A stretch of 64,000 bases of DNA from Raillietiella orientalis (taxonomy: Eukaryota), in assembly GCA_036172245.1 (NCBI GenBank), contig JAYWIR010000040.1, positions 248,001-312,000 of the forward strand, written 5' to 3'. Position numbers and translations under genes: made by a program. Every line of letters starts with the position of its first letter. Position 1 is the first letter of the stretch. The notes beneath the pieces are model-generated. The model saw only the letters and a program-made list of their open reading frames with translations. It did no database searches and had not been told where the DNA came from. Of this stretch, positions 1-64,000 are shown in pieces.

Positions 1-733
1 GAGTAGATCATCAGCGTATGCCAGATGGGTAAGATGCTGGCCATCGATTGTTATGCCTTGCAGTCGTTCGCTCTTCTCGATAAAGGACGACAACGCCTCC
101 ATGTCAGTGAACACCAGCGCCAGGTTCTCGCCGGCGTATCGGCTGAGTCCGACGGTGGCTTGGGCACACTTGACATTGTCCGACATGTGACGTCCAGGGA
201 CTGCACACGTTTGGACCGGAGAGATGAGCCTCGACATGACCTTGCCTAAGCGGTTGGACCAGATCTTCGCCAACCACTTGGCATCGGAGTTCAGGATCGA
301 GATTGGCCTCCATTGAGCGACCTGCGTAAGGTCGCCTCCTTTTGGCAACAATCTCATCCGACTCTCGTAGAAGGACTGTGGAAGTCTTCCTTCTTCGCGG
401 ATGCAGAGGGTCAACTGGTGAAACAAACGCACGTAGGCATGCAGGTACCGCTGATAGTGCGTGATGGGTACACTGTCAGGGCCCGCCGCCACATCCTTGC
501 GTAGTTGACCAAACGCAGTCTTCACCTCATCTTCGGAGAACTCCTCCTCCAGTCTGTTTCGCTGGACATCGTCGGTCCTCTTCTCGAGGTAGCTCAGAAA
601 GGCCTGTTGACTAGAGCGACAGAGATGTTGTCGCCTGAAGTGTTTCGTGTAATGCCTGTGAAAGGCATCCACGATGTCCTCAGACGACTGTCGCTTTTGA
701 CCGTCGTACTGGATGCAGAAGATATCTGTTGCC
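1..733 (-). mobile_element. Family B non-LTR retrotransposon, 5'-truncated fragment (linker/RT part of ORF2), runs off window edge
   Basis: Reverse complement matches ORF2 of the B copies at 56.1-57.1 kb and 61.8-62.7 kb (TDIFCIQYDG...RLLPKGGDL...HLAYADD); has an internal deletion at ~97-104. Confidence 0.9.
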
Positions 734-1402
734 GACTCGGCAGGAGAGGAGCAATCTCCCGACTGTCAAGAAGGTGACTCCGTTGCCGCCTTTTAAAGGC
801 GTAGCGAAAGCAGCGCACCCAGAGAACGCAGCGAAAATTCCGGAGGTTTCCGCAACTACTGTCGCGGAAGCCTCCGAAAATCGCGAAGGCGAATGGAAGG
901 TTGTGGAGAGGAGGAAAGAAAGATCTCCCCAAAAAGCTTCGCAACATCCATCTCTGAGCTCTTCCAAACTAAAAAGCAGTCGCGCGAATACGAAAACACG
1001 CGCGGCTTGTGCCTCTTCCCAGGAAAAAGCCAGCGCCTTCAACGCGTGCAAGTCCGCTTCTGTGACCGCCGAGAAGACCATTCCGGTGCAATCGGACGGA
1101 TGCAAGCGCACGTCGATCGTGCGAGCATCAGACTCCGCAAAGGAGTCCGATAGCGCCGCTGAACGACGCGTAACTCGCGCGGGAGCGAGCGCCCGCAGGG
1201 CTGAAACCCTGAGGCGTGACACACTCGCCGCAAAACGGCGAGTGCTCACCCCGGAACCAACAGGTTCTGCACCCGGGGAGGAGCACTCGATTGCGTGTAG
1301 CACAGTTGAGGCCGGTGGCGACCGCGCCCTCCAGCCCGTCGTACTGCTTACTGCCCGCTCGCCGGGTGAGGCGAGCACCACGGTCTCGCTTTCCCAGCCG
1401 TG

Positions 1403-4400
1403 ATGAGGGCAATCGCGTCTTCTCGTCGTGTTGCCGTCACGTCTTGGAACGTCAACGGGCTCCAACACGAGGAGCAGAGGCGACTAGTCGCTGATGCTCT
1501 GCGCTCCTTCGACTTGACGCTCCCGCAGGAGATTCACAGGATCTCCGAAGAGCAGGCTGCCGAAATCGAACGGAGCGCGGGCGGAACGCTACTTTATAGG
1601 TGCGGCGTTGCACGTACGTGCGGCGTCGCTTTCCTCGTGCGAGGAACTTTGGTGGGAGCGGTGCGCAGCGTTCGTTTCGACACGGAAGGCCAAGTGGGAC
1701 AGCTTGTACTCAAGTGGTCCGACTCGATCGACCTTGTCGTAACCAACGTGTACGCGCCGAGCGGTGCTGGACGATGGGCCGAAAGGATTGAGTTCTTCGG
1801 TACCCTTCAAAGCCAGTGGCTCACTCGATCTCACCCTACTGTGGCCCATCTCATTGCGGGGAACTTTAACGTCCACCTGTATTCCGCGAATAGATCCCAC
1901 AAAAGGGAAAAGTTGCTAGCGGAAGAGATGTGCGCGTCCGTGCACGCGTGCAACTTGTTCGCTAGCGACCTTGTTATTGCAGCAACGCCGGACCACGTCT
2001 ACCTTGATAAACACTTGCTCTCTCGAGTGGGTCGGAGAGGTACCGTGCCGTCCGTGCTTTCAGACCACAACAGGCTCGAATTCGAGTTGCTCCCGCCAGG
2101 CAAGGGGCCTCCAAACTGTTTTTGGAGGATGCCGGCAGGCTGGCTAAACCACTTGGAGGCGGCTGAGCATCTTCGCCAGTACCTCCTCGGCTTTGCCATA
2201 AGTGAGCTCGAGGACTGGGACGATCTGAAAAGATCGATCCGCGAGTTCTGCTGCCGGTTTCCCTTGCACCAGCTTCCCCGCGGCTTCGGAGAGGGCATAT
2301 CCAACAGCGGAGATTTTCTGCAGGCCCGCTCCTTTTCCAGGCGCACGGACGTTAGTCGATTATCCGAGTACAAGGCCAAGGCCGAGCGCCAGGTCTGGCA
2401 CTCAGGGGCGACAGTTCTGCTCGACGACCAGGACCGGGAATGCTCGGCTCCAGCCGACGTGCGACGGATAGTCAGGCGCTATTACTCTTCTCTGTATGCA
2501 GAGGCACCGACGGAACGCAGCCTCTCCCGGCTGCTTCTGCCGATTGATGCACCTGTTGTAGACGAGGTGGAACGCGCGCGTCTTGATGAGCCCTTCACGG
2601 CAGAGGAAATTTCCTCGGCCATCTCTTGGCTCCAAAGACGAAAAGCACCAGGCGAAGATGGGCTCCCTGCGGAATTCTTTTAGTGTTTTGCGGCGGAGCT
2701 CATCTTCCTGGTGCTCCAACTGTCGTCGCTGATGCGAGACTCGGGCGATGTCCCCGCCTCGTTTCGATCAGCGAAGGTGCGTCTACTGCCGAAAGGCGGA
2801 GATTTGCGCCAACTGAACAACTGGCGTCCGATCACATTAGTGAATTCAGTCGTCAAGTTGTTCTCGAAACTTTGGGTGGCGCGGATGGGTAGGATCGCAA
2901 AATCCTTGGTAAGTCCGGAGCAGACGTACGCTGTTCCTGGGCGGTCCATGGACGCGAATCTCCTGTTCATCCGCACATGGCTGCAATTGCAGCATCGTTT
3001 GGCGGTGGATTGTCGTGCGGAAGCAACGCCTTCGATCTCTCACCGACGGAGGCGCGGGACGAAAAAGAAGACACCGGGAGCCTTGGCGGTTGCAGTCGAT
3101 CTGCACAAAGCTTTCGATTGCGTGAACCAAAAGCTTCTTCTTAAGCTTTTGGAATGTCTGGGTCTTTCGGCATCCCTGTTGGCGTACTTGCGCTCCTGCT
3201 GGCGCCACGCGATTACATCCATTGTTTTCAGTGGCTGTCGCGTGTACGGCGTGCCGGTACGACGAGGAATTAGGCAGGGTGATAGCTTAAGCCCGCTGCT
3301 CTTCAGCATCTATTTTGAACTGGTGCTGGAATCTTACAGGCTGACGCTTGCCAACCTGCCGAGCTCCTGTCCAGGTACGCCGGCCGTGGCAGCCTATGCC
3401 GACGACCTGCTTCTCCTGTTGCCCATGTCCACCCCGGCGACATCGCTTGAAGACTTCTTTGAGTTGATTCGTCGCGGTGCGTGCGTGAGCGTTAACAGGA
3501 GTAAGTGTATGGTTGTTCCGGTGGGTGCGACGTGAGAGGGGCAGTCCGACTGGATCGGCCTGGGGATCCCCACGGGCAGGTACCTCAGGTACCTTGGCGC
3601 GCCGTTGGGCGACTTCTGCATCTCAGAAGCGTGGTCGGACTGCCTTCGGAAGGCAGAGCGTGCACTTGGCCCGTTTTCAGGAGGCGAGTTCGTCTTGCCG
3701 GAACGGGCCTGCATCTGGAACACCTTTGTTGCCCCCCTCCTCCGCCCCTGTTTTTTGTTTGTCCATCCCCCCAGGAAGTCAAAGTCTGAGCGCAGCGCCT
3801 TCTACGCAAAGCGTTGTGGGGCGCTGCAAGGTCCCGTGTTAGACTTAAAGACTTGGTGGCGCCGCGTCAGGATACAGGCTTGGGCATCCTGGACTTAAAA
3901 AGCATCGAACTGCAGGTGCAGTTTCGCATGCTGCGGCTCTGTGCCAAGCTGTGGTGTACGCCGTGGTGCTTACCCGCACGCCTTATACTGAGGCGCTGCA
4001 CGGGAAGCGAGGGACTGCTTTCGTTGCTACCCCACTTTCGGCACACCAGAATAGGGTTTGAATTCCCACCGAAACAGCTGTCCTCACTGCTGGAAGCCTA
4101 AAGCTGGATCTCCTGCCGCCCCATGAGCATTATTGCATGGCGGCAGGAATCTTTTTCATCGTGGGCAGCTTCCGAAGGAACGCGCCCGGAAGATCTTCGA
4201 CGCCTGCTACTTCTCCTCAGTCATCAAATAGACGAAGTCATGCAGGACAAGAAGTTGTCGGATCGTCTGGCCACCACACCAATCGCCGCCGCGCTGTCTG
4301 CCCTCAGGGCGAGCAACGACGGTTGCCTACCGGCGGAATGGGAGTTCTCCTGCAAAATAGCGGGAGTCAGTAAGCTCCTCGGCAGCTGGACGACAAAGGA

Positions 4401-4971
4401 GCTGGTGCAAGCCGCCACTCCTCGGAATCGGGCGAAGGGCCTGCTTCGGTGGAGCGAACATTTAAGTGTGCCCCCCGGAGAGACAGTGCCCCCCGTTTGT
4501 TTGGACAGCTTCGTGTTCCCCCTAAAGTGGAAACAAGATGTGCTGCTCTTTTTACATTGTGCATTACACTGTAATAGGCAGCGAAGCATCGTTTCCGGGG
4601 GAGCTGCTTTGCCAAACTGTTTAAAGTGCGGAGAGATCGAGTCTTTTCCGCACCTTTTGCTGGACTGCGGTGACCTCCGGGAACTGTGGCGAAGGCTCAC
4701 TTCGGCCATCATGCCACAAAGAGGCCCTGCCATTGATGTGCTGCGGCGCTTCTTCAGCAGAAATGGACTTTCGGTTTGCGCGATTGTCGCAACCATGTGT
4801 TGCGTTCGCGCCATCGTGATGGCCGGCTACGCCCTGGAGTTGTCAGCGCAGCGAAGGGAGGCTCACCTGCTTGCAGCTCAATTCATGAAGAAGGCTTCAA
4901 GGTGGTCTCATCTTCGTGACAAGGTGAATGAGGACATCACCGGCATACATCGCCGGTTTACACAGCTTTGA
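1403..4971 (+). pseudogene. ORF2 (APE endonuclease-reverse transcriptase-CCHC), disrupted
   Basis: Collinear ORF pieces 1400-2683, 2711-3535, 3605-3898, 3814-4101, 4123-4971 separated by stops/frameshifts. Confidence 0.9.
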
Positions 4972-5294: not shown

Positions 5295-5320
5295 AATAAA
5301 CGCCCCGGCGTGTCCGGGTG
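5295..5320 (+). terminator. Representative 3'-terminal signal: AATAAA + CGCCCCGG-N5-CCGGGTG hairpin (14 copies in the window)
   Basis: Follows every non-B ORF2 stop + U-rich UTR and precedes an abrupt switch to another element; function is inferred. Confidence 0.7.
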
Positions 5321-5324
5321 AGAA

Positions 5325-5870
5325 ATCTCCTGCGCTTGTTCTGCAGAGATCACATGGATCTCCTGCAGCAGCGCAAGGTCGAACGATCCTAGAATGGCGG
5401 CCATGTCTCGCCTTCTGCCGGCGTCTGTCATGCCGTTCACGTTCCAAACGGCGATGCGCAGACGACGGCGTGAGGGGATTACCGGCAATACTGCCGGGAA
5501 GATGACGGTGTGGGGAAACCCGCCTCTTCCGAGGCGGGTGAAATGACCATTAGGATTTCAGCCTCCTCAGGCACCTTGGGTACCTTTCCGGCTTCAACCC
5601 CCTCCATCTCCTCCGTGTCTGTGCGTGGTGGTCTCTCGGGTGACGATTCCTGGGATTCTCACACGCTCATTGCACTCTCGCAGTCCGAAGTCATCTCCAC
5701 GCCTTCAGCCTGGAGAGGGGCTATCCGGGGTTTGCTGGACTTCCTTCCAGCCTTCCGGCGGGGTGCCGCGGAGATGGAAACTTGGTTTCCGGCCTGCGCT
5801 TCGGGGTCGGAAGTTACCGACTCCTCGGTGGAGGCTGGACGCCTCACTGCCTTTTTGCAAGTCTTGAAGG
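5325..5870 (-). mobile_element. ORF1 C-terminus / ORF2 start of a D-like element, bounded by two insertions
   Basis: KKAVRRPAS...PRRKAGRKS, then RRRLRIAVWNVNGMTDAGRRRD...EQAQEI; similar to 12067-12620. Confidence 0.85.
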
Positions 5871-37373: not shown

Positions 37374-37472
37374 ACACCAAATTCCCGGGGCGGGCGGTGC
37401 ACGGGGAACTCCTCGCACAACTCCCGCACCGAGACTTTCATGCGGTCCCAGTCATGGAGATTCCGGAGCGTC
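37374..37472 (-). mobile_element. ~100-bp remnant of family G ORF2 linker (continuation of 43007-45611)
   Basis: TLRNLHDWDRMKVSVRELCEEFPVHR..FG; shares the target duplication with 43007. Confidence 0.8.
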
Positions 37473-37553
37473 GAGCGGACCTGTCTTTTCGTTGCTCCTG
37501 AGTTCCATTTCCGTTGGTGCTTGTGCGTGGTGTGGGTGGAGGATTAGGCAGAA

Positions 37554-42200: not shown

Positions 42201-42794
42201 ACGGGTCAGCTCACCAACGCTGCGACCCCGAGGACCACCCCAAATGGACTTTTGCGCTGAAGAGAGCTACTGGATGTTCCAGAGGAACATCTCGAGTGGC
42301 CTCCGGTGCTCATGGACTCGCGCACCCTCCCCATGAAGTGGCAACAGTCGGCACTGATGGTGTTGCATTGGGGGCTTCCTTGCAACGCCCGCCGACACCA
42401 CTGGACGCGGGGGGGTGTCAACCCTAATTGTGTCAGGTGCGGGGAGAAGGAATACCTCCCCCACCTGTTAGTGGATTGTGTTGCCCTCCATCCCTTGTGG
42501 GAACGCTTTGCCGCAGCCCTGGGGATCCCCGGAGGCAACCCCAGAGACGCTTTGCGCCCCCTCTTCGTCCGTGACGCCCTGCCTCCAGCGGCCTCGCTTG
42601 CAGCCCTGTGCTGCCTACGCGGGATCATCGTGGCATGGAGCAAAGCGACGGGAGGATCCAGCGACAGGGATGCCAACGTGTATGCTGCCCGTTTCCTCAG
42701 GATGGCGACGCGATGGCCCCATCTGGAACCACACAAGCAGAAACAGCTTGCCGGCATCCTCCAGAGGATGACGGACCCTCCCAGCAGACTGTGA
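39212..42794 (+). pseudogene. Family F ORF2 (APE-RT-CCHC, ~1190 aa), one frameshift near 40750 and one stop at 42258-42260
   Basis: ORF pieces 39212-40909, 40737-42260 and 42306-42794 carry all motifs in order. Confidence 0.9.
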
Positions 42795-43006
42795 TCCCTT
42801 CCCGCTCCCTCCCTGATTTTTGTTTATTTTTTGTTTTCTTTTTGTTTCGTTCCCCCTCCCCTCTGCTGCCGAGGTCGACCGCGCAGGTCTGCGCACCGGT
42901 AGCCCGGCAGGCTATATCTTTCCAGGGCGTGGCTGGACTACTGGCCCAGTCACAGATTGTATAAGTTTATTCGTTAGAATAAACGTCCCGGCGCACCCGG
43001 GTTTCA

Positions 43007-47369: not shown

Positions 47370-49158
47370 TGGGAGGGGCAGTCCGACTGGATCCGCCTGG
47401 GGATCCCCACGGGCAGGTACCTAAGGTACCTTGGCGTGCTGTTGGGCGACTTCTGCATCTCAGAAGCGTGGTCGGACTGCCTTCGGAAGGCAGAGCGTGC
47501 ACTTGGTTCGTTCTCAGGAGGCGAGTTCGTCTTGCCGGAACGGGCCAGCATCTGGAACACCTTCGTTGCCCCCCTCCTCCGCCCCCTGTTTTTTGTTTGT
47601 CCATCCCCCCAGGAAGTCAAAGTCTGGGCGCAGCGCCTTCTACGCAAAACGTTGTGGGACGCTGCAAGATCCCGCGTAAGACTTAAATACTTGGTGGCGC
47701 CGCGTCAGGATGCAGGCTTGGGCATCCTGGACTTAAAAAGCATCGAGCTGCAGCTGCAGTTTCGAATGCTGCGGCTCTGTGCCAAGCTGTGGTGTACGCC
47801 ATGGTGCTTACCAGCACGACTTATACTAAGGTGCTGCACGGGAAGCGAGGGACTGTTTTCGTTGCTACCCCACTTCCGGCACACCAGAATAGGGTTTGGC
47901 TTCCCGCTGAGGCAGCTGTCCTCACTGCTGGAAGCCCAATGTTGGATCTCCTGCCACCCCATGAACATTAATGCATAACGGCAGGAATCTTTTTCATCGT
48001 GGGCAGCTTCCGCAGGAACGCGCCCGGAAGATCTTCGACGCCTGCTATTTCTCCTCAGTCATCAAATGGACGAAGTCATGCATGACAAGAAGTTGTCGGA
48101 TCGTCTGGCCGCCACACCACTCGCCGCAGCGCTGTCTGCCCTCAGGGCAAGCAACGACGGTTGCCTACCGGCGGAATGGGAGTTCTCCTGCAAAATAGCG
48201 GGAGTCAGTAAGCTCCTCGGCAGCTGGACGACAAAGGAGCTGGTGCAAGCCGCCACACCTCGGAATCGGACGAAGGGCCTGCTTCGGTGGAGCGAACATT
48301 TAAGTGTACTCCCCGAAGAGATAGTGATCCCCCCGTTTGTTTGGACAGCTCCGTGTTCCCCCTAAAGTGGAAACAAAAATGTGCTGCTCTTTTTACATTG
48401 TGCATTACACTGTAATAGGCAGCGAAGCATCGTTTCCGGGGGAGCTGCTCCGCCAAACTGTTTGAGGTGCGGGGAGATCGAGTCTTTTCCGCACCTCTTG
48501 ATGGACTGCGGTGACCTCCGTGAACTGTGGCGTAGGCTGATTCCAGCCATCCTGCCGCAGGGAGGCACTGCCATTGATGTGCTGCGGCGCTTCTTCAGGA
48601 GGAATGGATTTTCGGTAGGCGCGATTGTCGCAACCATGTGTTGCATTCTCGCCATCGTGAAGGCCCGCTACGCACTGGAGTTGTCAGCGCAGCGAAGGGA
48701 GGCTCACCGGTTTGCAGCAGAATCCATGAAAAACGCTGCTAGGTGGTCTCATCTTCGTGACAAGGTCAAAGAGGACATCGCCGGCATCCACCGCCGGTTT
48801 ACCGACTTTTGGGAACGGCTTAATCCGGTGACCACTACGTCCTGAAGCCCACCCATACCCCTACCCGCTCGCTCTGCTAAAATACCGGTGCCATTACTAT
48901 TATTCCGGAGAGAACAAGAGCGATCCAAAAGCCCCTTGTCCCCGCGTCCCCCGTTGATTTCTTTTTCTTTTGTTTTTGTTTGTTTGTTTTCCCAGTTCCC
49001 ACAAACCGTTCTGTGTAATTCTGACCTGCGTGCTAGCAGTATTCTCCTGATACTTGTGCCGTCGTCGGCTGGGGGCATAGTACCCAACTGGTTTATTTTA
49101 TATATTTATTTCTGTTGTATTTATATGAAATAAACGCCCCGGCGTGATCGGGTGAGAA
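47370..49158 (+). mobile_element. Family A, 5'-truncated copy with 3' terminus
   Basis: Close paralog of 3535-5324; AATAAA+hairpin 49129-49154. Confidence 0.92.
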
Positions 49159-50459
49159 ATCTCCTGGACGTCCTTTCCCCTGAGGGCGTGAACCTCTTAG
49201 AGAACTGCCAGGTCGAAAGGTCGCAGGGTGTCGGCCACGCTACGCCTCTTGCTTTCGCTACGCAGCCCCTTGACATTCCAACAGGCTATACGCAGTTGCC
49301 GGCAAGAGTTGATTCCACGCATCATGCTAATGATGGTGGTGGCGATTGTGTAGCCGCATCCTGTTCGGGAGGCGGCTGGTCGATGTCCACCTGCATGGAC
49401 GGCGTTTCGGCAACGACCGGAAGGTCGGCAGCCGGACTGAGGTCGATCAGAAGATCGGACCGGGCGGTTTCCACGTAGGAATCCCGCGACCTCGCGGACA
49501 TCGGCTCCTCGCTACACGAGCGCATTTCCTCCTCCTCAGCCTGAGGGGGAGCGACGCGCATAGGGTTGCGGGACTTCCGGCCCGCCTTCCTCTTCGGGAG
49601 GGCGACGGTGGGAGCGTTTCCGGTTTTCGCCTCGAACACTGAAGTTTCCGGTCCTTTGGCTTCCGCCGGTCATCTCACGGCCTTCTTTGCAGCCTTAGGC
49701 GGCTGCATTAAGGTGGCCGCAAGTTCCTCCGCCGCCTTCGCGAAGTTTTTCTCGTCGCTGCTGCTCGCGTTCTTGTCGCAGATTTCCTGCGGCGGTTCCG
49801 CGGCGTTTGCGACAGTTGCGGAAGTCGCGTTTGCCGATCGACGTTCGATCGACGGAACGCGCTCGATGTTAACGCGGCATTCCTTTCTTATTTCGCGCGG
49901 CGTAAATTCTTTTGCGCCGTTTGCGGTTTTTATTGATTTGCTCGCGTTCTGATCTGTAGATTTTTTAGGTTTTTCATTATTGGAATTTTGATTTTTTGTT
50001 TTTTCGTTTGCGACTAATTTCCAGCCTTTTTCGCGGACGGTTAGATCAGAAGTCTCCTTTTGATTCTCCTGTTCCTTTTGTTTGGCTTCTGATTTTAGCT
50101 GTTGGTCGCTGTATGTTTGTTTTTCTGCCTTCTTCGCCTCTTTTAAAATAGCGGTTTGAAGCGTTGTAGCGGCCTTTTTCTGGCACACAACGTTTATGTG
50201 GCCCTTAGCGCCGCACGTTGGGCATGTGGCGTCCGGGCATCTCTTTTTGAAATGACCAAACGTGTTGCACAGCCCGCAGTATTTTTCTTTCCCTACGTAC
50301 CAGAGATCAACGAGCTTGTCGTTAATCTCCAGCTTGTGGAAAATTTCAATGTTTTCGCGGAGAGTTACGCGAGCGGCAAGTTGCCCATTAAATGCGCCTC
50401 TATATGTGAAGGCGTTGCGCTTCTTCCACATCGCGTAAATCTCTGCGAATTTATTGATT
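49159..50459 (-). mobile_element. Family I: ORF1 (AT/lysine-rich, 2x CCHC) and ORF2 start
   Basis: CGLCNTFGHFKKRC, CPTCGAKGHINVVC; TGATG at 49324-49320; CWNVKG. Confidence 0.88.
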
Positions 50460-51415: not shown

Positions 51416-52094
51416 CGCAAACGCCGCGGAACCGCCGCAGGAAAGCTGGGACAAAGACGCGAGCAGCAGCGACGACAAAAGTTTCGAGAAGGCGACGGAG
51501 GAACTCGCGGCCACCTTAATGCAGCCGCTTAAGGCTGCAAAGAAGGCTGTGAGACGTCCGGTGGAAGCCCAAGGACCGGAAACTCCAGTGTCCGAGGCGG
51601 AAACCGGAAATGCTCCCACCGTCGCCCTCCCGAAGAGGAAGGCGGGCCGGAAGTCCCGCAACCCTATGCGCGTCGCTCCCCCTCAGGCTGAGGAGGAGGA
51701 AATGCGCTCGTGTAGCGAGGAGCCGATGTCCGCGAGGTCGCGGGATTCCTACGTGGAAACCGCCCGGTCCGATCTTCTGATCGACCTCAGTCCGGCTGCC
51801 GACCTTCCGGTCGTTGCCGAAACGCCGTCCATGCAGGTGGACATCGACCAGCCGCCTCCCGAACAGGATGCGGCTACACAATCGCCACCACCATCATTAG
51901 CATGATGCGTGGAATCAACTCTTGCCGGCAACTGCGTATAGCCTGTTGGAATGTCAAGGGGCTGCGTAGCGAAAGCAAGAGGCGTAGCGTGGCCGACACC
52001 CTGCGACCTTTCGACCTGCCACTTCTCCAAGAGGTTCACGCTCTCAGGGGAGAGGACGTCCAGAAAATCGAGAGGCTCACAGGGGGGAGGCAAA
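51416..52094 (+). mobile_element. Family I: ORF1 C-terminus and ORF2 start
   Basis: Inverted paralog of 49159-49810; TGATG 51903-51907. Confidence 0.88.
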
Positions 52095-52704
52095 TTGTGC
52101 GAGGTGTGGAGCCCTAATTGTGCGAGTTGTGGAGAACGGTATTCCCCTCCTTTTGCATTTTGTGGCTCTTCGGCACCCTTGGAACCGTTTTGCCGCGTCA
52201 ATTCGTATCCCCTGTGGCAACCCCAGAGACGGAGTTAGATCTCTCTTCTTTTTCGACGCCCTTCGGCCTTCGACCTCGTTTGCAGCCCTGGACTGCTTTC
52301 GCGGGATAGTCGCTGCATGAAGCAAGACAACGGGAGAACCACGCGATAAAGTTGCCGTCCAGTGCGCAGCCAAATTTAGGGAGACGGCGACAGGATGGAC
52401 CCATCTGAATTCAACAATCCAAAAACAGCTTGCCGGCATCCTGCAAAGGATGAAACGGCCCCACAGCAGACTCTGATCCCTTCCCGAGCTCCCCAGATCT
52501 TTTTTTTATATATTTCTCATTTTTCGTTTTATGTTTTTGTTTTGTCCTTGCCCCCTCTGCTGTCGTGGTGGACCGTACCGGAATACGAACCGGTGACCCG
52601 GCAGGCTTAATTTTGTGTACCAGTGCGTGGCCGGACCACCAGGTCAGCCACCAACGCTTGTTTTATTCGAAAGAATAAACGCCCCGGCGCAACCGGGTGA
52701 AAAA
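52095..52704 (+). mobile_element. 3' terminal fragment with F/D-like 3' UTR
   Basis: PNCASCGER..; AATAAA+hairpin 52674-52699. Confidence 0.85.
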
Positions 52705-54202
52705 CGAGCTCACTTATGGCTAAGCCGCGGAGGTACTGGCGCAGATGCTCCGCCGCCTCCAGGTAACTTAGCCAGTCTGCCGGCATCCTCCAAACACAAT
52801 TTGGAGGCCACTTGCCTGCGGGGAGCAACTCGAACTCGAGCCTGTTGTGTTCTGAAAGCACGGACGGCATGGGACCTCTCCGACCCACTCGAGAGTGCAA
52901 GTGTTCGTAAAGGAATACATGGTCCGGTGATGTTGCCATAACAGGGTCGTTAGCGGACAAGCTGCACGCGTGCACGGACGCGTACATCTCTTTTACTAGC
53001 AACTTTTCCCATTTGTGTGCGCTATTCTCGATCAACAGGTGGACGTTAAAGTCCCCCGCAATGAGATGCGCCACAGTAGGGTGAGATCGAGTGAGCCACT
53101 GGCTTTGAAGGGTACCGAAGAACTCAATCCTTAGGGCCCATCGTCCAGCACCGCTCGGCGCGTACACGTTGGTTACGACAAGGTCGATCGAGTCGGACCA
53201 CTTGAGTACAAGCTGTCTCACTCGGCCTTCCGTGTCGAAGCGAACGCCGCGCACCGCTCCCGCCAAAAATCCTCGTACGAGGAAAGCGACACCTCACGTA
53301 CGTGCGACTCCGCACCTATAATGCAGTTCTCCGCCGGCGCGTTGTTCGATTTCAGCAGCATGCTCTTCAGGTATGCCGTGAATCTCCTGCAGGAGCGTCA
53401 ACTCGAAGGCGCGCAGAGCGTCAGCCACTAGTCGCCTCTTCTCCTCGTGTTGGAGCCCGTTGACGTTCCAAGACGTTACGGCAACACGACGAGAAGACGC
53501 GATTGCCCTCATCACGGCTGGGAAAGCGAGGCCGTGGAGCTCGCCTCACCCGGCGAGCGGGCAGTAAGCAGCACGACGAGCTGGAGGGCGCGGTCGCCAC
53601 CGGCCTCCACCGTGCTGCGCGTAATCTAGTGCTCCTCCCTGGGTGCAGAATCTGTGGGTTTCGGGTTGAGCACTCGCCGTTTCCCGGCGAGTGTGTAAAG
53701 CCTCAGAGCTTCCGCCCTGAGGGCGATCGCTCCCGCGCGAGTTACACGTCGTTCAGCGTCGTTATCGGACTCCTTTACGGAGTCTGACGCTCGCACGATG
53801 GACGTGCGCTTGCATCCGTCCGATCGCACCGGAATCGTCTTTTCGGCGGTCACAGCGGCGGAGTTGCACGCGTTGAAGGCGCCGGCGTTTTCCAAAGCAG
53901 AAAAACCCTCCGCGCGTCTTTTCTTGTTCACGCGGCTGTTCTTTGCCTTCAAAGAGCTAACGGATGGAGGTTGCGCAGCCTTCTTGGGAGATTTTTCTTT
54001 TCTCCTCTCCACAACCTTCCATTCGCCTTACCGATTTTCGCACAGTTCCGCGACTTTCGTCTCCGAAACCTCAGGAGTTTTCGCTACCGCCTCTGAGTGC
54101 ATCGCTTTTGCCACGCCTTTTAAAGGAGGCATCGCAGTCACCTTTGTGGCAGACGGGAGATTGCTCCTCTCTTGCCGAGTCCGCGACCTTGCTTCGCGGC
54201 TC
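52705..54202 (-). mobile_element. Family A: ORF1 C-terminus and endonuclease
   Basis: Paralog of 731-2210; TGATG at 53514-53510. Confidence 0.9.
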
Positions 54203-57200
54203 ATTGCATTTTATAGCGACATGATCGCCAAGATGAAGATGAAGGAGGGAGCTGTTATACCTGGGTTGGCGTTCATTGACGAACAATCCCAGGGAGTGAA
54301 CGTGCGCTACCAATAACAGCCGGTATTCTGCACCGGGTGCAAGCAGTTCGACCACAGGGCGGGCACTTGCCCAACATGCCGTTGCTTCCGCTGCGGCAAA
54401 GAAGGACATCAAGTCCGAAACTGCCCGCAACCGAAGTTGGCTCCTCCTGCAAGAAGCACAGACATGCTAAATGGAGCTGTCCGGAATTCGCCAATTGCAG
54501 AAGGATTCGAGGACTCTCCCGTGACAGAAACATCAAGGCGGCCGAACAGCCTCAGAAGTTGGCAGCAAGTCCGAACAAGGTGAAGGAAGCCGTCCATGTA
54601 TCGACGGACGGCTTCATTGAGGTAGGAACGAAAGGAAATAGGAGGATGCTCGTCAACGAGAAAGAAACCCCTCTTATTCTAGAAGGAGCAGCGCAGGAAG
54701 GCGTAAAGATGGAGGTAGCGCAGGAACGTGCGAAAGAAGGAAACCAGGAAGCCACTCCAGTGTCGCAGGAGGACCTGCAGTCCACGGAGGAGTTGGCAAC
54801 ACTAGCGGAGGAAGTTAAGGAGGTGCAAAGCGGGCCTCAGCAAGAGAAAATCTTGAGAACATCTGCAATGCACACGAGAAGGTGAACCGGGTTGTGGAGG
54901 TCACCGGCGCGAGACCTTAGAAGAACAGCTTCTCGACGTAAAGGCGAACTTCTGCGCAAAGGTCGAGATAGAGGCGCTATCTCGAAAATTGATCGGGCGG
55001 GCCGAACACTTTACGGAGGAGGCGGAAGTAACCGACCTCACCGGAACGGAGAGTGACGCCGGCAGCGAGAAGCCCGCTGCTTCTTCATCGTCTGGAAGAG
55101 CACGCTCTTTCAGACAGAAGAAGCTCAGGAAGGCCAGGAAATAGGTCTTCCCCTTTTATGGCCTCTTGCCTATCGACCGCCAAGAGGCTGAACATCGCCT
55201 CCTGGAATGTAAACGGTGTGGTCGACCAGGGAAAAAGAAAAAGGATTGTGCGGACCATCGCACAACAAGACCCACAAGATGGATCTCGAGATTAGTCAGC
55301 GAATGGAACGGCGATTCAACGGGCAGATGTTCGTCAGCGAGGGAGAACGGAACACGCAGGGTGTGGCGGTCCTAATGAAGAAACACTTTGCCACCACTAT
55401 TCTGGAAGTGTTCTGTCCCCAACCCGGACGAATCATCCGCGTGCGACTGGCCTGGTCCGCGACTGTTCCCCTTATCCTGGTGAACGTGTACGGGCCCCAC
55501 AGGCTAAAACATCGTTGTGCGGAGGCGCTGCATGCAGCACTCCGTGAAAAGGTCGCCCCCAAGGACGTCGTGATTGTTGCTGGCGATCTCAACATATTGG
55601 ATGAGATCACTCATTCCCAAGAAGCCAGAGGAAGGACGGCGTATCGGCGGCTATCCGACGAGTTCGGACTGGTGTGGCGGACAGCAAGTCGCAAGCTGAT
55701 CGATCACGTACTCCACAGCACCGAACTAGGGAATCGCATTCAGGGTTTTCGAGACACATTGACCACTCTGTCCGATCGCCCGTTGATGCGGTTTTCCCTA
55801 AGAACGGAAAATCCTCGGCGGAGGCAAGGCACCAGGGCGGCGCTCATCAGCATGCCCGCCTGGTTCGAGACACATCCTGGACATCAGCAGGTCCTGGAGA
55901 CGATTCTGAAGACCACAAAAAATCATAAGAGTCACCGACTGGGACAGCTTGAAACACAGGATACACCTGTTTGCAAATATGCAATTCGGGGATAGGCACT
56001 TGAGGCAGGAGGCGAACCGGGAGCTGAACATCCAAGATCCCTCACTCTTAAAGTACTTCGAACAGTACGAGAGTCGGTACGTATTCAACAACATAAAAGA
56101 GGAACTCGGCGTGCTGGAGAAGAGAAATCTGGCAACAGATATCTTCTGCATCCAGTACGACGGTCAAGAGCGACAGTCGTCCGAAGATATAGTGGAAGCC
56201 TTTCACAGGCATCACATGAAACACTTCAGGCGACAACATCTCTGTCGCTCTAGTCAACAAGCCCTTCTGAGCTATCTCCAGAACAGGACCGACGATCTCC
56301 AACGAAACAGACTGGAGGAGGAGTTCTCCGAAGATGAGGTGAAGACTGCGTTTGGTCAACTACGCAAGGATGTGGCAGCGGGCCCTGACAGTGTACCCAT
56401 CACGCACTATCAGCGGTACCTGCATGCCTACCTGCGTTTGTTCCACCAGTTGAACCTCTGCATCCGCGAAGAAGGAAGCCTTCCACAGTCCTTCTACGAG
56501 AGTCGGATGAGATTGTTGCCAAAAGGAGGCGACCTCACGCAGGTCGCTCAATGGAGGCCAATCTCGATCCTGAACTCAGACGACAAGTGGTTGGCGAAGA
56601 TCTGAATCCAACCGCTTAGGCAAAGGTCATGTCGAGGCTCATCTCTCCGGTCCAAACGTGTGCAGTCCCTGGACGTCACATGTCGGACAATGTCAAGTGT
56701 GCCCAGGCCACCGTCGGACTCAGCCGATACGTCGGCGAGAACCTGGCGCTGGTGTTCACTGACATGGAGAATGCTTTCGACTCCATAGACCATGGGATGC
56801 TGCTGAAGGTTCTGGAGAAGCTAGGCCTTCCGGAACACTTCAGCAACTTCGTGGGGGTGGTACTCCAGAACTAGTACTGCCGAATCAAAATCTACGGCCA
56901 GGAGACGGCAGCAATCCGGATGGAATTCGGAGTCCGGCAGGGCGATTCGCGAAGTCCGATGCTGTTCGTCATCTACATGGAGGCGTTGTCGTCCTTTATC
57001 GAGAAGAGCGAACGACTGCAAGGCATAACGATCGATGGCCAGCGTCTTACCCATCTGGCATACGCAGATGATCTACTCTTCTTTATCAAGGGAGAGAGAA
57101 ATCAACGAGCGTTTCTGGATGTGGTAGACCTGATGGATCAAGGCCTCGCTCTAAAGATCAACGCCCAGAAAAGCCAGCTCTTGCCCGTTGGAATCCTCGA

Positions 57201-58792
57201 TCTCTCCGCTCTAGCGGAAAGAGGATTCCGAACGGTGGACAAGGCCAAGTACCTGGGTGTCTACATTGGCGACGTCTCCGCGTCGAAGCTATTGTGGACC
57301 GAGATCCTAGGGAAAACGGCCAAGGAAGCAGCCAAGTACACCCGAACGGACCTTGGAATGAAGCGAAAGGCCAACATATGGAACGGAGTACTCCTTCCAA
57401 AAGTGCTCTTCGGGGCGGCCTTCGCGAGGATGAACAAGGAAACCACGAGGGAGTTCGACAAGCTGCAGAGAAAAACACTGTGGGGCCACTATCGCCCAAG
57501 AGTCCGACTAAAACCCCTGTGTCGTCCCAAGGAAGAAGGCGGTTCCGGGATGAAGTCGCTTGCACATTCCATGGAAATCATGGATACGCGACACATCCTG
57601 GACATTGCCACTTACTGGGATGACTGGCCGTATGCGGCGCACAGGGCCTACGCGTTGTTGCTTAACAACTCGAAAGGCCTGATGACTGCGCTGCTAGGCA
57701 TAGCAGGCAAATGAAACAAAATCGACCCCACCTGGACGAGGAAGCAACGGCTGGTGCGGAAGCACCAAATCAAGATCGTGCCGCGAAGCAGGGAACTCTG
57801 GCAGGACGAGTCCATCCTGGTGATCCCTTGGTTGCTTCCTGTCCCGCCGGACACGAGAAGCTGGATCTACCAGCGATCCAGAGTTACCCTACTGCAAATC
57901 CAGGAGTGGAGGCGAGGAGGCTACCTAAATCAAACACGTATACTTCGGTATACAGAGATGATATTAGGAAGGTTTACCCACAGGACCTGCGAAGTGTGGT
58001 TCAACCACAACGACTTCGCATGGTCGAGGGTAACCAGAACAAACCTCCGAAGGCTTATCCAAGAAAACGACCGTGACACCAGTGCCCTCCAGGAAGCCAC
58101 CGAACGCTACGGGAGTGAACGGTTCAACCTGTTAGCGATCGGCACGACGCTCTGGAGGAGTGACCTTCAACCGGGCACCCAGGATGACCTCCTGATGTTT
58201 TATCACGGAGGAATCCAGAGTGGGTCCCGATTGCAGCACATCACAGGAAGACGGGAAGACCGAGACTGCGCAGCATGTGGAGACGACGACACGAGACTTC
58301 ACGTCTTGACGTGTCCACACTCCTGCATGACTAGCTGATCCTGAAAAGGATCATAGGACTTACCAAGAAGTCCGTTATGAAGATCCTCGCCGGGATGTTT
58401 CATGGGGATGGTAATGTTCCCTGTTACAATCCCATGGTGAGGACGACCATAGCCCTCTTCATCAACGCCATACTTGTGCGATGGTGAAAAATGAGGAAAG
58501 CCAGGAGAGTCGCACCACCGATGGAGATCCAACAAGGGTTCTTGAAGAGGGAAATCGGCATCACGAACTGCGGGAAGATCCACGCCTGGACGTACCGATT
58601 CATCCTGAAGAGGATTTAGGACGACGCCCGGGACCATCCAGCTGGAAGTCCCCCCTGAAAAGCAGAGCTCTAGTGCAACCCCAGGACCCCCAAGTGCAAA
58701 AGGTTTGTATTGAGTGAATGAGAGTGCGAATGTAAATTTTGTATTTTTGTAGAAAAATAAACTTACCCCACCCCTTGTGGGACTTGGAGAAA
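54203..58792 (+). mobile_element. Family B (more divergent L1/Tx1-like), 5'-truncated decayed copy with 3' terminus
   Basis: ORF1 knuckles, ASWNVNG, NVYGP, GDLN, AFDSIDH, RQGD, YADD, CAAC..HVLTC; AATAAA 58756-58761. Confidence 0.92.
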
Positions 58793-58976
58793 CCTGCCGA
58801 GTCGGTGAACTTGCTTCGCGGCTCCAAGTATTGTGCGCTCGACAACATAATCTGTTAAATTGTGCTCGTGTGTGCCCGAAGAGGGAAGTTTTCCAGACGA
58901 AACTACAAAAGAAGCGGCGAGGAGACCGCGGCAAAAGACCTGGCAGTGGTCCCGTGCAGCAAGACCAGCTGCCAGG

Positions 58977-60764
58977 ATGCAGGCACATGGAGGAGGAGTG
59001 GAGAGACCGTCGTCCCCCATGGAAGCCAGGGAGGTAACGTGCGGCAACGGCGAGGCGGTGGCAGGCATGCCAAGGATCGCGCCCGCGGCGGGCTTTGCTG
59101 CGCCGGCGGCGGCGATGCCAAGGGTCGTGCCCGCGGCGACGACGGCGGAGGTCGTGCCCGCGGCGGCGACGCCGAGGATCGTGCCCGCGGCGGGGAAGGT
59201 CGCGATTGCGGCAGCGATGCCGAGTGTGCCGCCTGCGGCGGCAACGGTGGCGACGTCGAGGGTTGCGCTCGCGGCGGCGGCGTCCCAGGCAGGACCCGCG
59301 GGCGTCGACGCGGTTCAGGGCGAGACGCCATCTTGTTCGGCTGCGGCGGCGCAGCCCTTTTGCTATGCGTCGGTGGCGGCTGGACAAGCGAGTGTCCACA
59401 CACCAAGAAAATTCGGGAAGCCGCTATGCGGTAAAGTCCATAAGGTCGATCGGCCGATCGTGGAGTTAGGGCCCAATGTGAAGCCCATCATTTTTAAGAC
59501 TGGGCTGATCACGTTCAGTAATACCAGGGAGGTGTATCTGTCCCTCGATAAGACGGATATCAATTTTGATCGCATACAGGCGATCATACCGGCAAATAAC
59601 GGGTTCACAGTCTTCACAGACTGTGAAAATATTAGAGAGCGATTGATCCTGAAGGGGATCAATATACAAGGGAGGATGGTTTGTGGTATTGGCGAAATGC
59701 CATACACAACCGTCTTTCTGAACGGCATCTCCATCCTCACACCGCAACTAACGGAGTGGAACTTTTTGGAGCAGTATGGGGAAGTTCTGGACCTTGAATT
59801 CCATAACTTCTCTGGAAATATATTTTCTGGCGACATGATCGCCAAAATAAAGTTGAAAGAGGGAGCTGTGATCCCTGGATTAGCCGTTCTTGACGAACAA
59901 TCTCAGCGAGTGAACGTGCATTACCGGCAACAGCCGATATTCTGCACCAGGTGCAAGCAGTTCGGCCACAGGGCCGGCGCTTGCCCAACGTGTCGTTGTT
60001 TCCGCTGCGGCAAAGTTGGACATCAAGTTCGAAACTGCCCGCAGCCGGAGGTGTGCTCCTTCTGCAAGAAACACAGACATGCCAAATGGAGCTGTCCGGA
60101 GTTTGCAAACTGCAGAAGGATTCGAGGTCTCTCTCCCGTGAGAGAGAGAAACACCAAGGAGGCGGAACAGCCTCAGAAGGCAGGAAGGCCGAAGAAGGTG
60201 AAAGAAGCCGTCCCGGTATCGGAAGACGGCTTCATACAGGTAGGGAAGAAAGGAAAGAGAAGGATGCTCGTCAAGGAGCAAGAAACCCCTCTTATCCTGG
60301 AAGGTGAAGAGCAAGTAGGCGAGAAGATGGAGGTAGCGCAGGAAGGCGCGGAAGAAGAAAAAGCCGAAGCCACTCCGGCGTCGCAGGAGGCCCTGCAATC
60401 TACGGAGGAGTTGGCATCACTAGCTAATGAAGTCTTAGAGGTGCAGAGCGGTCCCCAGCAAGAGAAAATCTTGCAGAAAAGCTGCAATGCACAGGAGAAG
60501 GTCAACCAGGTTGTGGAGGTCACCGAGCGCGAAAAGCTAGAGGAACAGCTTCTCGACGTAAAGGCGAACTTCTGCGCCAAGGTCCAGATAGAGACGCTAT
60601 CTCGAAAACTGATCGAGCGGGCCGAACACTCGACGGAGGAGGCGGACGTAACCGACCTCACCGGAACAGAGAGTGACGCCGGCAGCGAGAAGCCCGCTGC
60701 TTCTTCATTGTCTGGAAGAGCACGCTCTCTCAGACAGAAGAAGCTCAGGAAGGCCAAAAAATAG
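58977..60764 (+). CDS. Family B ORF1 protein (Ala-rich N-terminal repeats, 3x CCHC zinc knuckle, Glu-rich tail); start codon uncertain
   Basis: CTRCKQFGHRAGAC, CFRCGKVGHQVRNC, CSFCKKHRHAKWSC in an open frame 58860-60764; first ATG at 58977. Confidence 0.8.
   Translation: MQAHGGGVERPSSPMEAREVTCGNGEAVAGMPRIAPAAGFAAPAAAMPRVVPAATTAEVVPAAATPRIVPAAGKVAIAAAMPSVPPAAATVATSRVALAAAASQAGPAGVDAVQGETPSCSAAAAQPFCYASVAAGQASVHTPRKFGKPLCGKVHKVDRPIVELGPNVKPIIFKTGLITFSNTREVYLSLDKTDINFDRIQAIIPANNGFTVFTDCENIRERLILKGINIQGRMVCGIGEMPYTTVFLNGISILTPQLTEWNFLEQYGEVLDLEFHNFSGNIFSGDMIAKIKLKEGAVIPGLAVLDEQSQRVNVHYRQQPIFCTRCKQFGHRAGACPTCRCFRCGKVGHQVRNCPQPEVCSFCKKHRHAKWSCPEFANCRRIRGLSPVRERNTKEAEQPQKAGRPKKVKEAVPVSEDGFIQVGKKGKRRMLVKEQETPLILEGEEQVGEKMEVAQEGAEEEKAEATPASQEALQSTEELASLANEVLEVQSGPQQEKILQKSCNAQEKVNQVVEVTEREKLEEQLLDVKANFCAKVQIETLSRKLIERAEHSTEEADVTDLTGTESDAGSEKPAASSLSGRARSLRQKKLRKAKK
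59060..59250 (+). repeat. Degenerate GC-rich ~27-bp repeats encoding (M/T)PR(V/I)VPAA
   Basis: tcg(t/c)gcccgcggcg recurs four times. Confidence 0.75.
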
Positions 60765-60777
60765 GTCTTCCCCTTTT

Positions 60778-63700
60778 ATGGACTCTTCCCTATCGACCGC
60801 CAGGAGGATAAACATCGCCTCCTGGAACGTAAACGGTGTGGTCGACCAGGGAAAAAGAAGAAGGATTGTGCGGACCATCGCACAACAAGACATCGTGTGC
60901 CTGCAGGAGACCCACAGGATGGGTCTCGAGATAAGCCAGCGAATAGAACAGCGATTCAACGGGCAGATGTTCGTCAACGAAGGAGAACGGAACACGAAGG
61001 GTGTGGCGGTGCTAATAAAGAACAACTTAGCCCCCACTATTCTGGAAGTGTTCTGTCCCCAACCCGGACGAATCATCGGCGTGCGACTGGCCTGGTCCGC
61101 GACTGTTCACCTTATCCTGGTAAACGTGTACGGGCCGCACAGGCTAAAACATCGTTGTGCGGAGGCGCCGCATGCAACACTCCGGCAAAAGGTCGCCCCT
61201 AAGGACGTCGTGATTGTTGCTGGCGATCTCAACATCTTGGATGAGATCATTCATTCGGAAGACGCCAGAGGAAGGACGGCGTATCGACGGCTATCCGAGG
61301 AGTTCGGACTGGTCTGCGAACAGCAAGCCACAAGCCATTCGATCACGTCCTGCACAGCACCGAACTTAGGAACCGTATCCAGGGGTTTCGCGACACTATG
61401 ACTACGGTGTCCGATCACCCCCTGGTGCGGTTTTCCCTAAGAACGGAGAATCCTCGGCGGAGGCAAGGCACCAGGGCAGCGCTCATCAGCATGCCCGCCT
61501 GGTTCGAAACCCATCCCGGACATCAGGCTGTCCTGGAGGCGATTCTGAGGGCAACAACAATCCGAAGAGTCGCCGACTGAGACAGCCTGAAACACAGGAT
61601 ACACCTGTTTGCAAACATGCAGTTCGGGGATAGGCGCTTGAGGCAAGAGGCGTACCGGGAGCTGAACATCCAAGATCGCTCCCTCTCAAAGTACTTCGAT
61701 CAGTACGAGAGTCGGTACGTCCTCAATAACATAAAAGGGGAAGTCGGCGTGCTTGAGAAGAGAAATCTGGAAACAGATATCTTCTGCATCCAGTACGACG
61801 GCCAAAAGCGACAGTCGTCTGAGGACATCGTGGATGCCTTTCACAGGCATTACACAAAACACTTCAGGCGACAACAGCTGTGTCGCTCTAGTCAACAGGC
61901 CTTCTTGAGCTATCTCGAGAAGAGGACCGACGACCTCCAGCGGAACAGACTGGAGGAGGAGTTCTCCGAAGAAGAGGTGAAGACTGCGTTTGGGCAACTA
62001 CGCAAGGACGTGGCAGCGGGCCCTGACAGTGTACCCATCTCTCACTATCAGCGGTACTTGCATGCCTACCTGCGTTTGTTCCACCAGTTGACCCTCTGCA
62101 TCCGTGAAGAAGGAAGACTTCCACAGTCCTTCTACGAGAGTCGGATGAGATTGTTGCCAAAAGGAGGCGACCTCACGCAGGTCGCTCAATGGAGGCCAAT
62201 CTCGATCCTGAACTCGGATGCCAAGTGGTTGGCGAAGATCTGGTCCAACCGCTTAGGCAAGGTCATGTCGAGGCTCATCTCTCCGGTCCAAACGTGTGCA
62301 GTCCCTGGACGTCACATGTCGGACAATGTCAAGTGTGCCCAGGCCACCGTCGGACTCAGCCAATACGTCGGCGAGAATCTGGCGCTGGTGTTCACTGACA
62401 TGGAGAAGGCTTTCGACTCCATCGACCATAAGATGCTGCTGATGGTTCTGGAAAAGCTCGGACTTACGGAACACTTCAGCAACTTCGTGAGAATGGTACT
62501 CCAGAACCAGTACTGTTGAATCAAAATCAAAGGCCAGGAGGCGGCAGCAATCCGGATGGAACGGGGAGTCCGGCAGGGCGATTCGTTTAGTCCTATGCTG
62601 TTCGTCATCTACATGGAGGCGTTGTGGTCCTTTATCGAGAAGAGCGGACGACTGCAAGGCATAACAATAGATGGCCAGCGTCTTACTTATCTGGCATACG
62701 CTGATGATCTACTCTTCTTTATCAAGGGAGAGAGAAATCAACGAGCGTTTCTTTATGTGGTAGACCTGATGGATCAAGGCCTCGGTCTAAAGAGCAACGC
62801 CCATAAAAGCCAGCTCTTGCCCGTTGGAATCCTCGATCTCTCCACTCTAGCAAGGAGAGGATTCCGAACGGTGGACAAGGCCAAGTACCTGGGTGTCTAC
62901 ATTGGCGACGTCTCCGCGTCGAAGCTATTGTGGACCGAGATCCTAGGGAAAACGCCCAAGGAAGCAGCCAAGTACACCCGAACGGACCTTGGAATGAAGC
63001 GAAAGGCCAACATATGGAACGAAGTACTCCTTCCAAAAGTGCTCTTCGGGGCGGCCTTCGCGAGGATAAACAAGGACACTACTAGGGAGTTCGACAAGCT
63101 GCAAAGAAAAACACTCTGGGGCCACTATCGCCCAAGAGTAAGACTGAAACCCCTGTGTCGTCCCAGGGAAGAAGGCGGTTCCGGGATGAAGTCGCTTGCA
63201 CACTCCATAGAAATCATGGATACGCGACACATCCTGGACATTGCCACTCACTGGGATGACTGGCCGTATGCGGCGCACAGGGCCTACGCGTTGTTGCTTA
63301 ACAACTCGAAAGGCCTTATGACTGCGCTGCTAGGCCGAGCAGGCAAATGGAACAAAATCGACCCCACCTGGACGAGGAAGCAACGGCTGGTGCGGAAGCA
63401 CCAAATCAAGATCGTGCCGCGAAGCAGGGAACTCTGGCAGGACGAGTCCATCCTGGTGATCCCTTGGTTGCTTCCTGTCCCGCCGGACACGAGAAGCTGG
63501 ATCTACCAGCGGTCCAGTGTTACCCTACTACAAATCCAGGAGTGGAGGCGAGGAGGCTACCTACATCAAACACGTATACTTCGGTATACAGAGATGATGT
63601 TAGGAAGGTTTACCCACAGGACCCGCGAAGTGTGGTTCAACCACAACGACTTCGCATGGTCGAGGGTAACCAGAACAAACCTCCAAAGGCTTATCAAAGA

Positions 63701-64000
63701 AAACGACCGTGACACCAGTGCCCTCCAGGAAGCCACCGAACGCTACGGGAGTGAACGGTTCAACCTGTTAGCGATCGGCACGACGCTCTGGAGGAGTGAC
63801 CTTCCGCCGGGCACCCAGGATGACCTCCTCATGTTTGATCACGGAGGAATCCAGAGTGGGTCCCGATTGCAGCACTTCACAGGAAGACGGGAAGACCGAG
63901 ACTGCGCAGCATGTGGAGACGACGACACGAGACTTCACGTCTTGACGTGTCCCACACTGCTGCATGACTGGCTGATCCTGAAAAGGATCATAGGACTTAC
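60778..64000 (+). pseudogene. Family B ORF2 (APE-RT), disrupted
   Basis: ASWNVNG, CLQETH, DMEKAFD, YADD; frameshift near 61330, stops near 61578 and 62517. Confidence 0.88.

Follow-up and report, generated by a model that had tools for sequence, protein, structure and literature searches.

Family B is a non-LTR retrotransposon (LTR, long terminal repeat) present in a 64,000-nucleotide stretch of Raillietiella orientalis DNA (GenBank assembly GCA_036172245.1, contig JAYWIR010000040.1, forward-strand positions 248,001 to 312,000). This whole stretch is called the window here, and positions are counted from its first base. Copies of B are inserted in antisense orientation at a single site of another such element, family A, and two of them are stacked head to tail with a 32-nucleotide (nt) sequence, T, as spacer. 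The arrangement is best explained by a fixed 32-bp target-site duplication, made by B upon integration, and by the insertion of a second B into one of the duplicates; we give this reading a probability of roughly 0.7. The B copy that carries T on both sides is direct evidence for the duplication.

Two copies of T enclose this element, B1 (54203–58792, plus strand). T1 (54171–54202, plus strand) is continuous with a minus-strand fragment of the A subfamily A1 and lies directly 5′ of B1. T2 (58793–58824, plus strand) stands between the 3′ end of B1 and the 5′ end of the next copy, B2. BLAST of B1 leaves exactly T2 as the gap: B1 ends on the base before T2, and B2 begins on the base after it. T1 and T2 are alike at 28 of 32 positions, with mismatches at T positions 2, 12, 14 and 17. 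This similarity is far beyond chance, because 50 shuffled windows give best matches to T1 that average 20.3 and do not exceed 23/32. A scan of both strands for matches of at least 21/32 recovers the T1/T2 pair and one 22/32 match, to T2, at 24601–24632; the latter was considered as a related copy and rejected as a chance match, since it lies inside the shuffle range. The 5′ junctions of B1 and B2 both come directly after ...gcttcgcggctc, which ends ...gcggctc. An original prediction drawn from this DNA had claimed that the 32-mer recurs with four mismatches, that its second copy lies between the 3′ end of B1 and the start of B2, and that both 5′ junctions follow a common motif. These three claims hold.

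T is family A sequence and not part of B, as judged from its surroundings. Leftward of T1, 1.48 kb of DNA is 87% identical to positions 734–2210 of A1(+), a plus-strand host copy (745..4449) with an ORF1-tail region, an apurinic/apyrimidinic-type endonuclease (APE) at 1403–2944 and a reverse transcriptase (RT) at 2936–4449; ORF denotes open reading frame. T positions 1–13 are present at the homologous place in this copy. T can be assigned to A because T1 runs into A1 sequence whose second copy holds these 13 positions. The host fragment next to T1, A1(-) (52706..54170, minus strand; 'A-left' in the orientation of B), comprises APE residues 1–269 (52706–53512) and the ORF1-tail region. T lies ~660 nt upstream of the point at which the A1 APE begins; in intact A-like elements this is the region of the basic ORF1 tail. 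The site had been placed within A ORF1, at the minus-strand peptide EPRSKVADSAR. By position this is right, but both A1 copies are decayed there and carry stops and frameshifts in the T region. A homologue of the T region is found in none of the other A copies of the window by tblastx, nor does any of them match T at 21/32 or more. The other A-like ORF1-tail regions in the window have no B inserted, while the T-bearing A1 copies are both occupied (2/2). B thus appears to be confined to A1, because the ORF1 tail is not conserved among A subfamilies and none of the others matches T.

The B copies were mapped by BLAST of 54203–58792 against the window, and within the window B1 matches other B copies only. 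All three copies (3/3) sit at the T site and are antisense to A1. B1 is 4590 nt long, lacks ~990 nt at its 5′ end and has coding frames that are broken in several places. B2 (58825..64000, plus strand) is longer and continues past the window end. Its match to B1 covers 59822–64000 (91.3% identity over 4187 columns, from B1 nt 6). The first base of B1 corresponds approximately to B2 position 59817, and the ~990 extra nt of B2 represent the 5′ untranslated region (UTR) and the N-terminal part of ORF1. The description of the copies is to be corrected on this point: B1 is 5′-truncated, and the longer 5′ end belongs to B2. In B2 the 5′ UTR (58825–58976) is followed by an ORF1 with a CCHC knuckle (58977–60764) and, from 60778, by an ORF2 encoding APE and RT, all on the plus strand; this ORF2 has at least two frame breaks and one stop.

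The third copy, B0 (1..731, minus strand), is a 5′-truncated fragment that starts at B1 nt 1929 and continues past the window start. It is recognized by BLAST, by its junction and by tblastn to the B RT, and its minus-strand matches to B1 extend over 97–733 (95.5%) and 1–104 (97.1%). B0 is without ~205 nt of B1 (B1 nt 2568–2772), the gap lying at 97–104. Its 5′ end adjoins T positions 1–13 of A1(+) (732..744, minus strand; ccgactcggcagg), with a 2-nt GG/CC microhomology to B at 732–733. The earlier statement that a third fragment joins A at the same motif is correct as to the site, but the junction follows T position 13 and not position 32. The 5′ ends differ in all three copies (3/3): one is full-length-like, one is ~990 nt shorter and one begins at B1 nt 1929. 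Three different 5′ ends indicate independent insertion events.

Further junctions are provided by contigs of the public run X1 (0.24 of sampled words), which were compared with positions 53600–59820. Most of these contigs are other copies, because only 10 of 158 are at least 99% alike to this interval. One contig of 519 nt, record 8, has 308 nt on 58793–59098 (T and the 5′ end of B) and 79 nt on A-left up to 54040; the intervening ~132 nt are unplaced and compare with 130 nt in the window. The contig reads as an independent A-T-B junction that has the full 5′ end of B and does not involve B1. The known 5′ junctions at the T site come after T position 32 (B1, B2 and record 8) or after position 13 (B0). 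Two X1 contigs run from 59818 or 59820 back to 54208. The start of B1 is therefore an internal point of longer copies, which these contigs cross. Several internal deletions of 74–152 nt are seen in other B copies among the X1 contigs.

T precedes every longer B 5′ end observed, namely B2 and record 8, and this would also be expected if T2 had been carried on B RNA. It could have served as a 5′ leader or have been acquired as 3′ read-through of A, and it would then have arrived with the insertion of B2 beside B1 or by a template jump. Comparable behaviour is familiar from other elements: some R2 RNAs retain a 28S tag after ribozyme cleavage, R1 anneals via read-through target sequence and the R2 RT jumps between templates. 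The 5′-truncated B1, however, is unable to carry a 5′ leader, and it too is preceded by a full T that ends at the same nucleotide. B is antisense to A, which leaves no cotranscript from an A promoter. A search of 52000–64000 against Rfam returns 0 matches at E ≤ 1, for ribozymes as for any other family. Under the blunt version of the idea, B2 would have had to land precisely at the 3′ end of B1, with its upstream target context replaced. Finally, family A has the same 3′-end architecture and makes a true duplication. Carriage of T2 on RNA is the least probable of the alternatives weighed in this report.

A fixed 32-bp duplication followed by re-insertion remains the preferred explanation, and from it we infer the nick positions, the order of events and the construction of the locus by re-insertion. 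The proposed mechanism has the following steps. (i) B would integrate by target-primed reverse transcription at one antisense site in the ORF1-tail region of A1. (ii) On the A-sense strand, the B endonuclease would nick between ...ctcctct and cctgccgag (in the orientation of B), which is the left edge of T. (iii) The nicked 3′ end would prime cDNA synthesis from the 3′ end of B RNA (...GAGAAA). (iv) The other strand would be cut 32 nt downstream, after ...gcggctc. (v) Fill-in would then yield one copy of T on either side of the new B. (vi) Because the duplicated T retains the nick sites, a further B could enter it, and the predicted result is a head-to-tail B-T-B stack with a 32-nt spacer.

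The same mechanism is fully visible in family A within the same window. A full-length A copy (37472–43006) is flanked by an 18-bp direct repeat (37454–37471 and 43007–43024; 17/18). It sits within a minus-strand A-like copy, the APE-coding sequence of which resumes on both sides. An empty-site paralogue has the 18-mer once, at 9081–9098 (minus strand), in an uninterrupted A-like ORF2. From the 18-bp duplication and the empty site it follows that family A is itself site-specific for A-like ORF2. Twin-priming inversion was considered for the antisense A/A junctions and was rejected because one copy has host sequence to either side of it and a clean 18-bp duplication. The same 5′ junction recurs in a second full-length A copy, which lies on the minus strand and whose 5′ end is at 34355. 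Counting this one, two more A-like insertions use the homologous APE site, just past the conserved ...GTCCCAGTC; their junctions are 34355/34356 (5′) and 52704/52705 (3′). At 52705 the A1(-) fragment is interrupted by a plus-strand A-like copy, which meets it with its 3′ end and for which the empty site is present in A1(+) near 2205–2215. The fragment that bears T1 is therefore bounded by site-specific insertions on both sides.

The boundary between B1 and T2 is set by a 3′-end architecture that B shares with A. Ten A-like 3′ ends, all on the plus strand, are present in the window (5294, 8724, 25792, 30942, 42977, 46203, 47213, 49128, 51385 and 52673). All ten (10/10) consist of AATAAAyG, a 5-bp hairpin and a short, often GAGAAA-like tail that is not poly(A), with target DNA directly after it. 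This target is antisense APE-coding DNA in 6/10, entered at residue ~55–64 (three ends), ~269 (two) or ~300 (one). The minus-strand A-like copies are mostly 5′ parts, with ORF1 and the APE N-terminus, and the 3′ termini are all on the plus strand. The 3′ end of B1 has AATAAAC, a CCCAC/GUGGG hairpin and GAGAAA, again with no poly(A). A 5-bp stem and a 5-nt loop are common to the A and B ends (58757–58792 in B; 42978–43006, 52674–52704 and 5295–5325 in A). The A stem reads CCCGG/CCGGG and the B stem CCCAC/GUGGG, a difference that is compensatory at two positions. Predicted energies of these 3′ hairpins are no better than those of shuffled sequences, 33–100 of 200 shuffles folding equally well, and the compensatory stem difference is the sole hint that the hairpin may be real. 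Because B1 shares the A-like 3′-end architecture, B is taken to end at 58792 and T to begin at 58793. A weak likeness, probably due to chance, exists between the final ~20 nt of B1 and A sequence ~10 nt upstream of T1, collinear with T. A longer A-derived spacer built on this likeness (58772–58792 against A-left 54141–54160) was rejected: 59/2000 shuffles score equally, and the shared architecture sets the end of B at 58792.

Several observations weigh against a fixed duplication and re-insertion. Both flanks are visible for B1 only, with B2 and B0 extending beyond the window, and the window holds one B 3′ junction, 58792/58793. An uninterrupted A1 target or an A-right flank is not seen in the window, and a single T at the empty site is an assumption. 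The B0 junction falls 19 nt short of the B1 and B2 junctions. An X1 contig, record 7, matches 58506–58805, which is the B 3′ end and T positions 1–13. Past T position 13 it continues for 295 nt that are unlike anything in 53600–59820, whereas a full T followed by A-right should probably have aligned further. B 3′ ends had been predicted to be followed by c(c/t)tgccgagtc; in this one contig the first 13 nt of T are indeed present, but the match stops there. T position 13 is both the end of the record 7 match and the site of the B0 5′ junction. A B1-T2-B2 bridge is present in none of the best 8 of 168 X1 pieces, and the assembly is the sole source for the tandem joint. Lastly, T1 and T2 differ at 4/32 positions, and at positions 2 and 12 T2 equals the other A1 copy and not T1.

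The X1 contigs stop or start in T (record 7 ends at 58805, record 8 starts at 58793), and the joint lies in a highly repeated context. Together with the missing bridge, this could mean that the tandem joint is an assembly chimera formed via the shared 32-mer and that the real loci are single A-T-B-T-A insertions. The absence of a bridge from the best 8 of 168 pieces means little, however, as short-read contigs break at repeats, and an overlap of 32 nt is too short to fool a long-read assembler. Arrays of this kind exist in R1. Even with a chimeric joint, the 32-bp duplication and the site specificity would stand. We regard a chimera as very unlikely.

The agreement of T2 with the other A1 copy at two positions is also what a T2 imported from another locus would show. 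The divergence of B1 and B2 is 8.7%, and the dense repeat nest makes ectopic exchange plausible. On these grounds the 32-bp duplication might be real and the stack still not derive from a second insertion at this place: a B-T-B dimer could have been retrotransposed as a 5′-truncated unit, or two T-flanked Bs could have undergone unequal crossing-over. Decay in place is nevertheless also expected to allow four mismatches. Changes private to B1 amount to 18/637 columns of a three-way alignment; these and the B1/B2 divergence predict 1.8–2.8 mismatches between T1 and T2, with P(≥4) = 0.11–0.31, so that the four observed fit the age of B1. Either event would still need an earlier re-insertion or a T-flanked pair, and the mechanism would be moved elsewhere and not replaced. 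A second dimer is lacking: the one B 3′ end in the window belongs to the known stack, and the best 8 of 168 X1 pieces offer no B-T-B bridge. A dimer or an exchange is unlikely, if somewhat less so than a chimera. The prediction that B makes a ~32-bp duplication which regenerates its target and allows tandem arrays is partly upheld, by the T-bracketed B1, the three antisense copies, the X1 junction, the 18-bp duplication of family A and the precedent of R1; it is qualified by the single B 3′ junction and the missing uninterrupted T.

Family B is, by its sequence, an L1-like non-LTR retrotransposon of ~5.6 kb with an APE-type endonuclease. It has the characters of a long interspersed nuclear element (LINE): an APE in ORF2 with the RT downstream, variable 5′ truncation, no terminal repeats and a flanking duplication. 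The endonuclease matches PF03372 (E 6e-13, 60652–61401), and the RT downstream of it matches PF00078 at 61581–62519 (E 2e-12) and 62520–63998 (E 6e-12). Among solved structures, the best relative of the endonuclease is the human L1 endonuclease (E 2e-5) and that of the RT is L1 ORF2p (E 8e-11). Endonuclease structures of R1 and TRAS exist in the PDB. The solved chains that match the B endonuclease at E ≤ 1 are L1 endonuclease entries and, after these, cellular AP endonucleases and exonucleases; none of them is R1- or TRAS-named, and the RT has no match so named at E ≤ 1 either. B probably lies outside the R1 clade, because its closest solved relatives are human L1 proteins and no R1 or TRAS chain appears at this threshold.

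Sequence relatives of both families are distant. A protein search with the B RT gives 10 matches at 24–32% identity, and a search of representative sequences gives 5641 matches at E ≤ 0.001 and 0 at E ≤ 1e-30. The named relatives of B are plant-type L1 RTs at 25–33% identity. The corresponding search with the A APE-RT yields 13 matches at 23–35% identity. The names among the 20 top protein matches are plant or streptophyte L1-type, or generic, and the protein searches returned no relatives above ~33% identity. Metagenome scans for further B copies gave 0 matches to the 24-nt B 3′ end, and of 321 pattern stretches for the B RT 0 were confirmed by tblastn.

The surroundings of the stack consist of the same class of element. 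Fragments of APE-type non-LTR retrotransposons, on both strands, occupy the window nearly end to end, and the whole 64 kb is a LINE-in-LINE nest. GC content is 54–63% in 2-kb steps, and the observed/expected ratio of CpG is 0.99. Family A comprises several related subfamilies with 60–90% DNA identity among them. Its ORF1 (~550–580 amino acids, aa) contains CCHC knuckles, has a long basic tail and is followed by an ORF2 with APE and RT. Family B has the same architecture, with a zf-CCHC match in ORF1 and Exo_endo_phos and RVT_1 matches in ORF2, while the identity between A and B ORF2 is only ~30%.

Two side observations concern family A. The A copy at 37554–42260 is nearly intact, with an open ORF1 of 552 aa and an ORF2 in two overlapping frames (39212–40909 and 40737–42260); the overlap suggests a single frameshift. 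The heptamer TCTCCTG coincides with or adjoins the first-nick position in two different targets (745–751, reverse complement, in A1(+); 5320–5326; 49154–49160). In the A-like insertions at APE residue ~60 the junction comes immediately ahead of TCTCCTG, and in A1(+) B joins 3 nt inside the heptamer. Its counterpart in A1(-) is TCTCTTG.

Site-specific LINEs are candidates for targeted gene insertion, and they also serve as models of how a DNA target is chosen and rebuilt by an endonuclease together with an RNA template. The closest parallel to the B stack is R1. In Drosophila, R1 forms tandem arrays in the 28S ribosomal DNA in which the copies are separated by a 14-bp duplication, and the arrays are attributed to a new copy that enters the duplication which a resident copy carries at its 5′ end (Stage & Eickbush 2009, PMC2718515). 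As described there, R1 resembles B in being APE-type and site-specific, with head-to-tail copies that have the duplication as spacer; its rigid 3′ junction, its 5′ junctions, which vary more than the 3′ junctions, and its fixed duplication would be shared by B. The two differ in the length of the spacer, 14 bp in R1 and 32 bp in B, and in the target: R1 enters the 28S rRNA gene, B the ORF1 region of another LINE, on the antisense strand. Unlike R1, B has an endonuclease and an RT that are closest, among solved structures, to human L1. Tandem stacking by insertion into an element's own duplication is already known from R1, and current models are not overturned. B would add a second, independent case of such arrays, formed by an L1-like and not an R1-like element with a fixed and fairly long 32-bp stagger.

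The usual target-site duplications of LINEs measure 5–20 bp. Longer ones are known, among them that of R9, an element which carries a restriction-like endonuclease and thus another enzyme type than APE. The duplication is 126 bp in R9 of bdelloid rotifers and has a median of ~900 bp in Dualen (Dualen-4b of Chlamydomonas), which carries both a restriction-like and an APE endonuclease (PMC9977147). By that account R9 and Dualen are like B in being site-specific or active LINEs with nicks far apart and duplications longer than usual. To call the duplication of B 'unusually long', as the original prediction did, is an overstatement beside these values; for a site-specific LINE of the APE type, 32 bp is long without being extreme.

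With respect to its target, B is comparable to Tx1. Tx1 (Tx1L) of Xenopus targets Tx1D, a non-autonomous piggyBac transposon, and its endonuclease sets the target; in the same source 313 of 347 copies of SINEU-3 are flanked by one Mariner family, and the Tx1 clade is described as found in animals (Kojima 2015, PMC4494074). Like B as described here, Tx1 is APE-type, belongs to an L1-related group and has another transposable element as target. The target of Tx1 is a DNA transposon, whereas that of B is a LINE coding region. The nearest named relatives of B are plant and streptophyte L1-type proteins at ~30% identity, in contrast to the animal distribution given for the Tx1 clade. B would add a target inside the coding region of another LINE. 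Literature searches, none dedicated to the question, turned up no LINE that targets another LINE's ORF1, and no claim is made that such a case is unpublished.

The window as a whole invites comparison with Zepp. The chances are about even that it belongs to a cluster consisting solely of LINEs, which a guild of related L1-like elements has built, each with a fixed antisense nick site in the coding sequence of another LINE. In this guild A would use at least two recurrent A-like APE sites, one of them with a proven 18-bp duplication, and B would be a hyperparasite of the A1 ORF1 tail with its fixed 32-bp duplication. Such a cluster could grow on itself because the duplications regenerate targets, and this would provide Zepp-like LINE clusters, which are possibly centromeric, with a mechanism at the level of sequence. 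The self-targeting of A, with its 18-bp duplication, and the insertion of B would together offer a concrete explanation for the growth of these clusters without damage to genes. Zepp and ZeppL of green algae form GC-rich clusters of nested, mostly 5′-truncated L1-clade LINEs (Craig et al. 2021, PMC8226300; Blanc et al. 2012, PMC3446292). In these descriptions the clusters resemble the entire 64-kb window as a LINE-in-LINE nest, a likeness by description. Zepp is described as targeting its own copies, whereas B targets a different family, with ~30% identity in ORF2.

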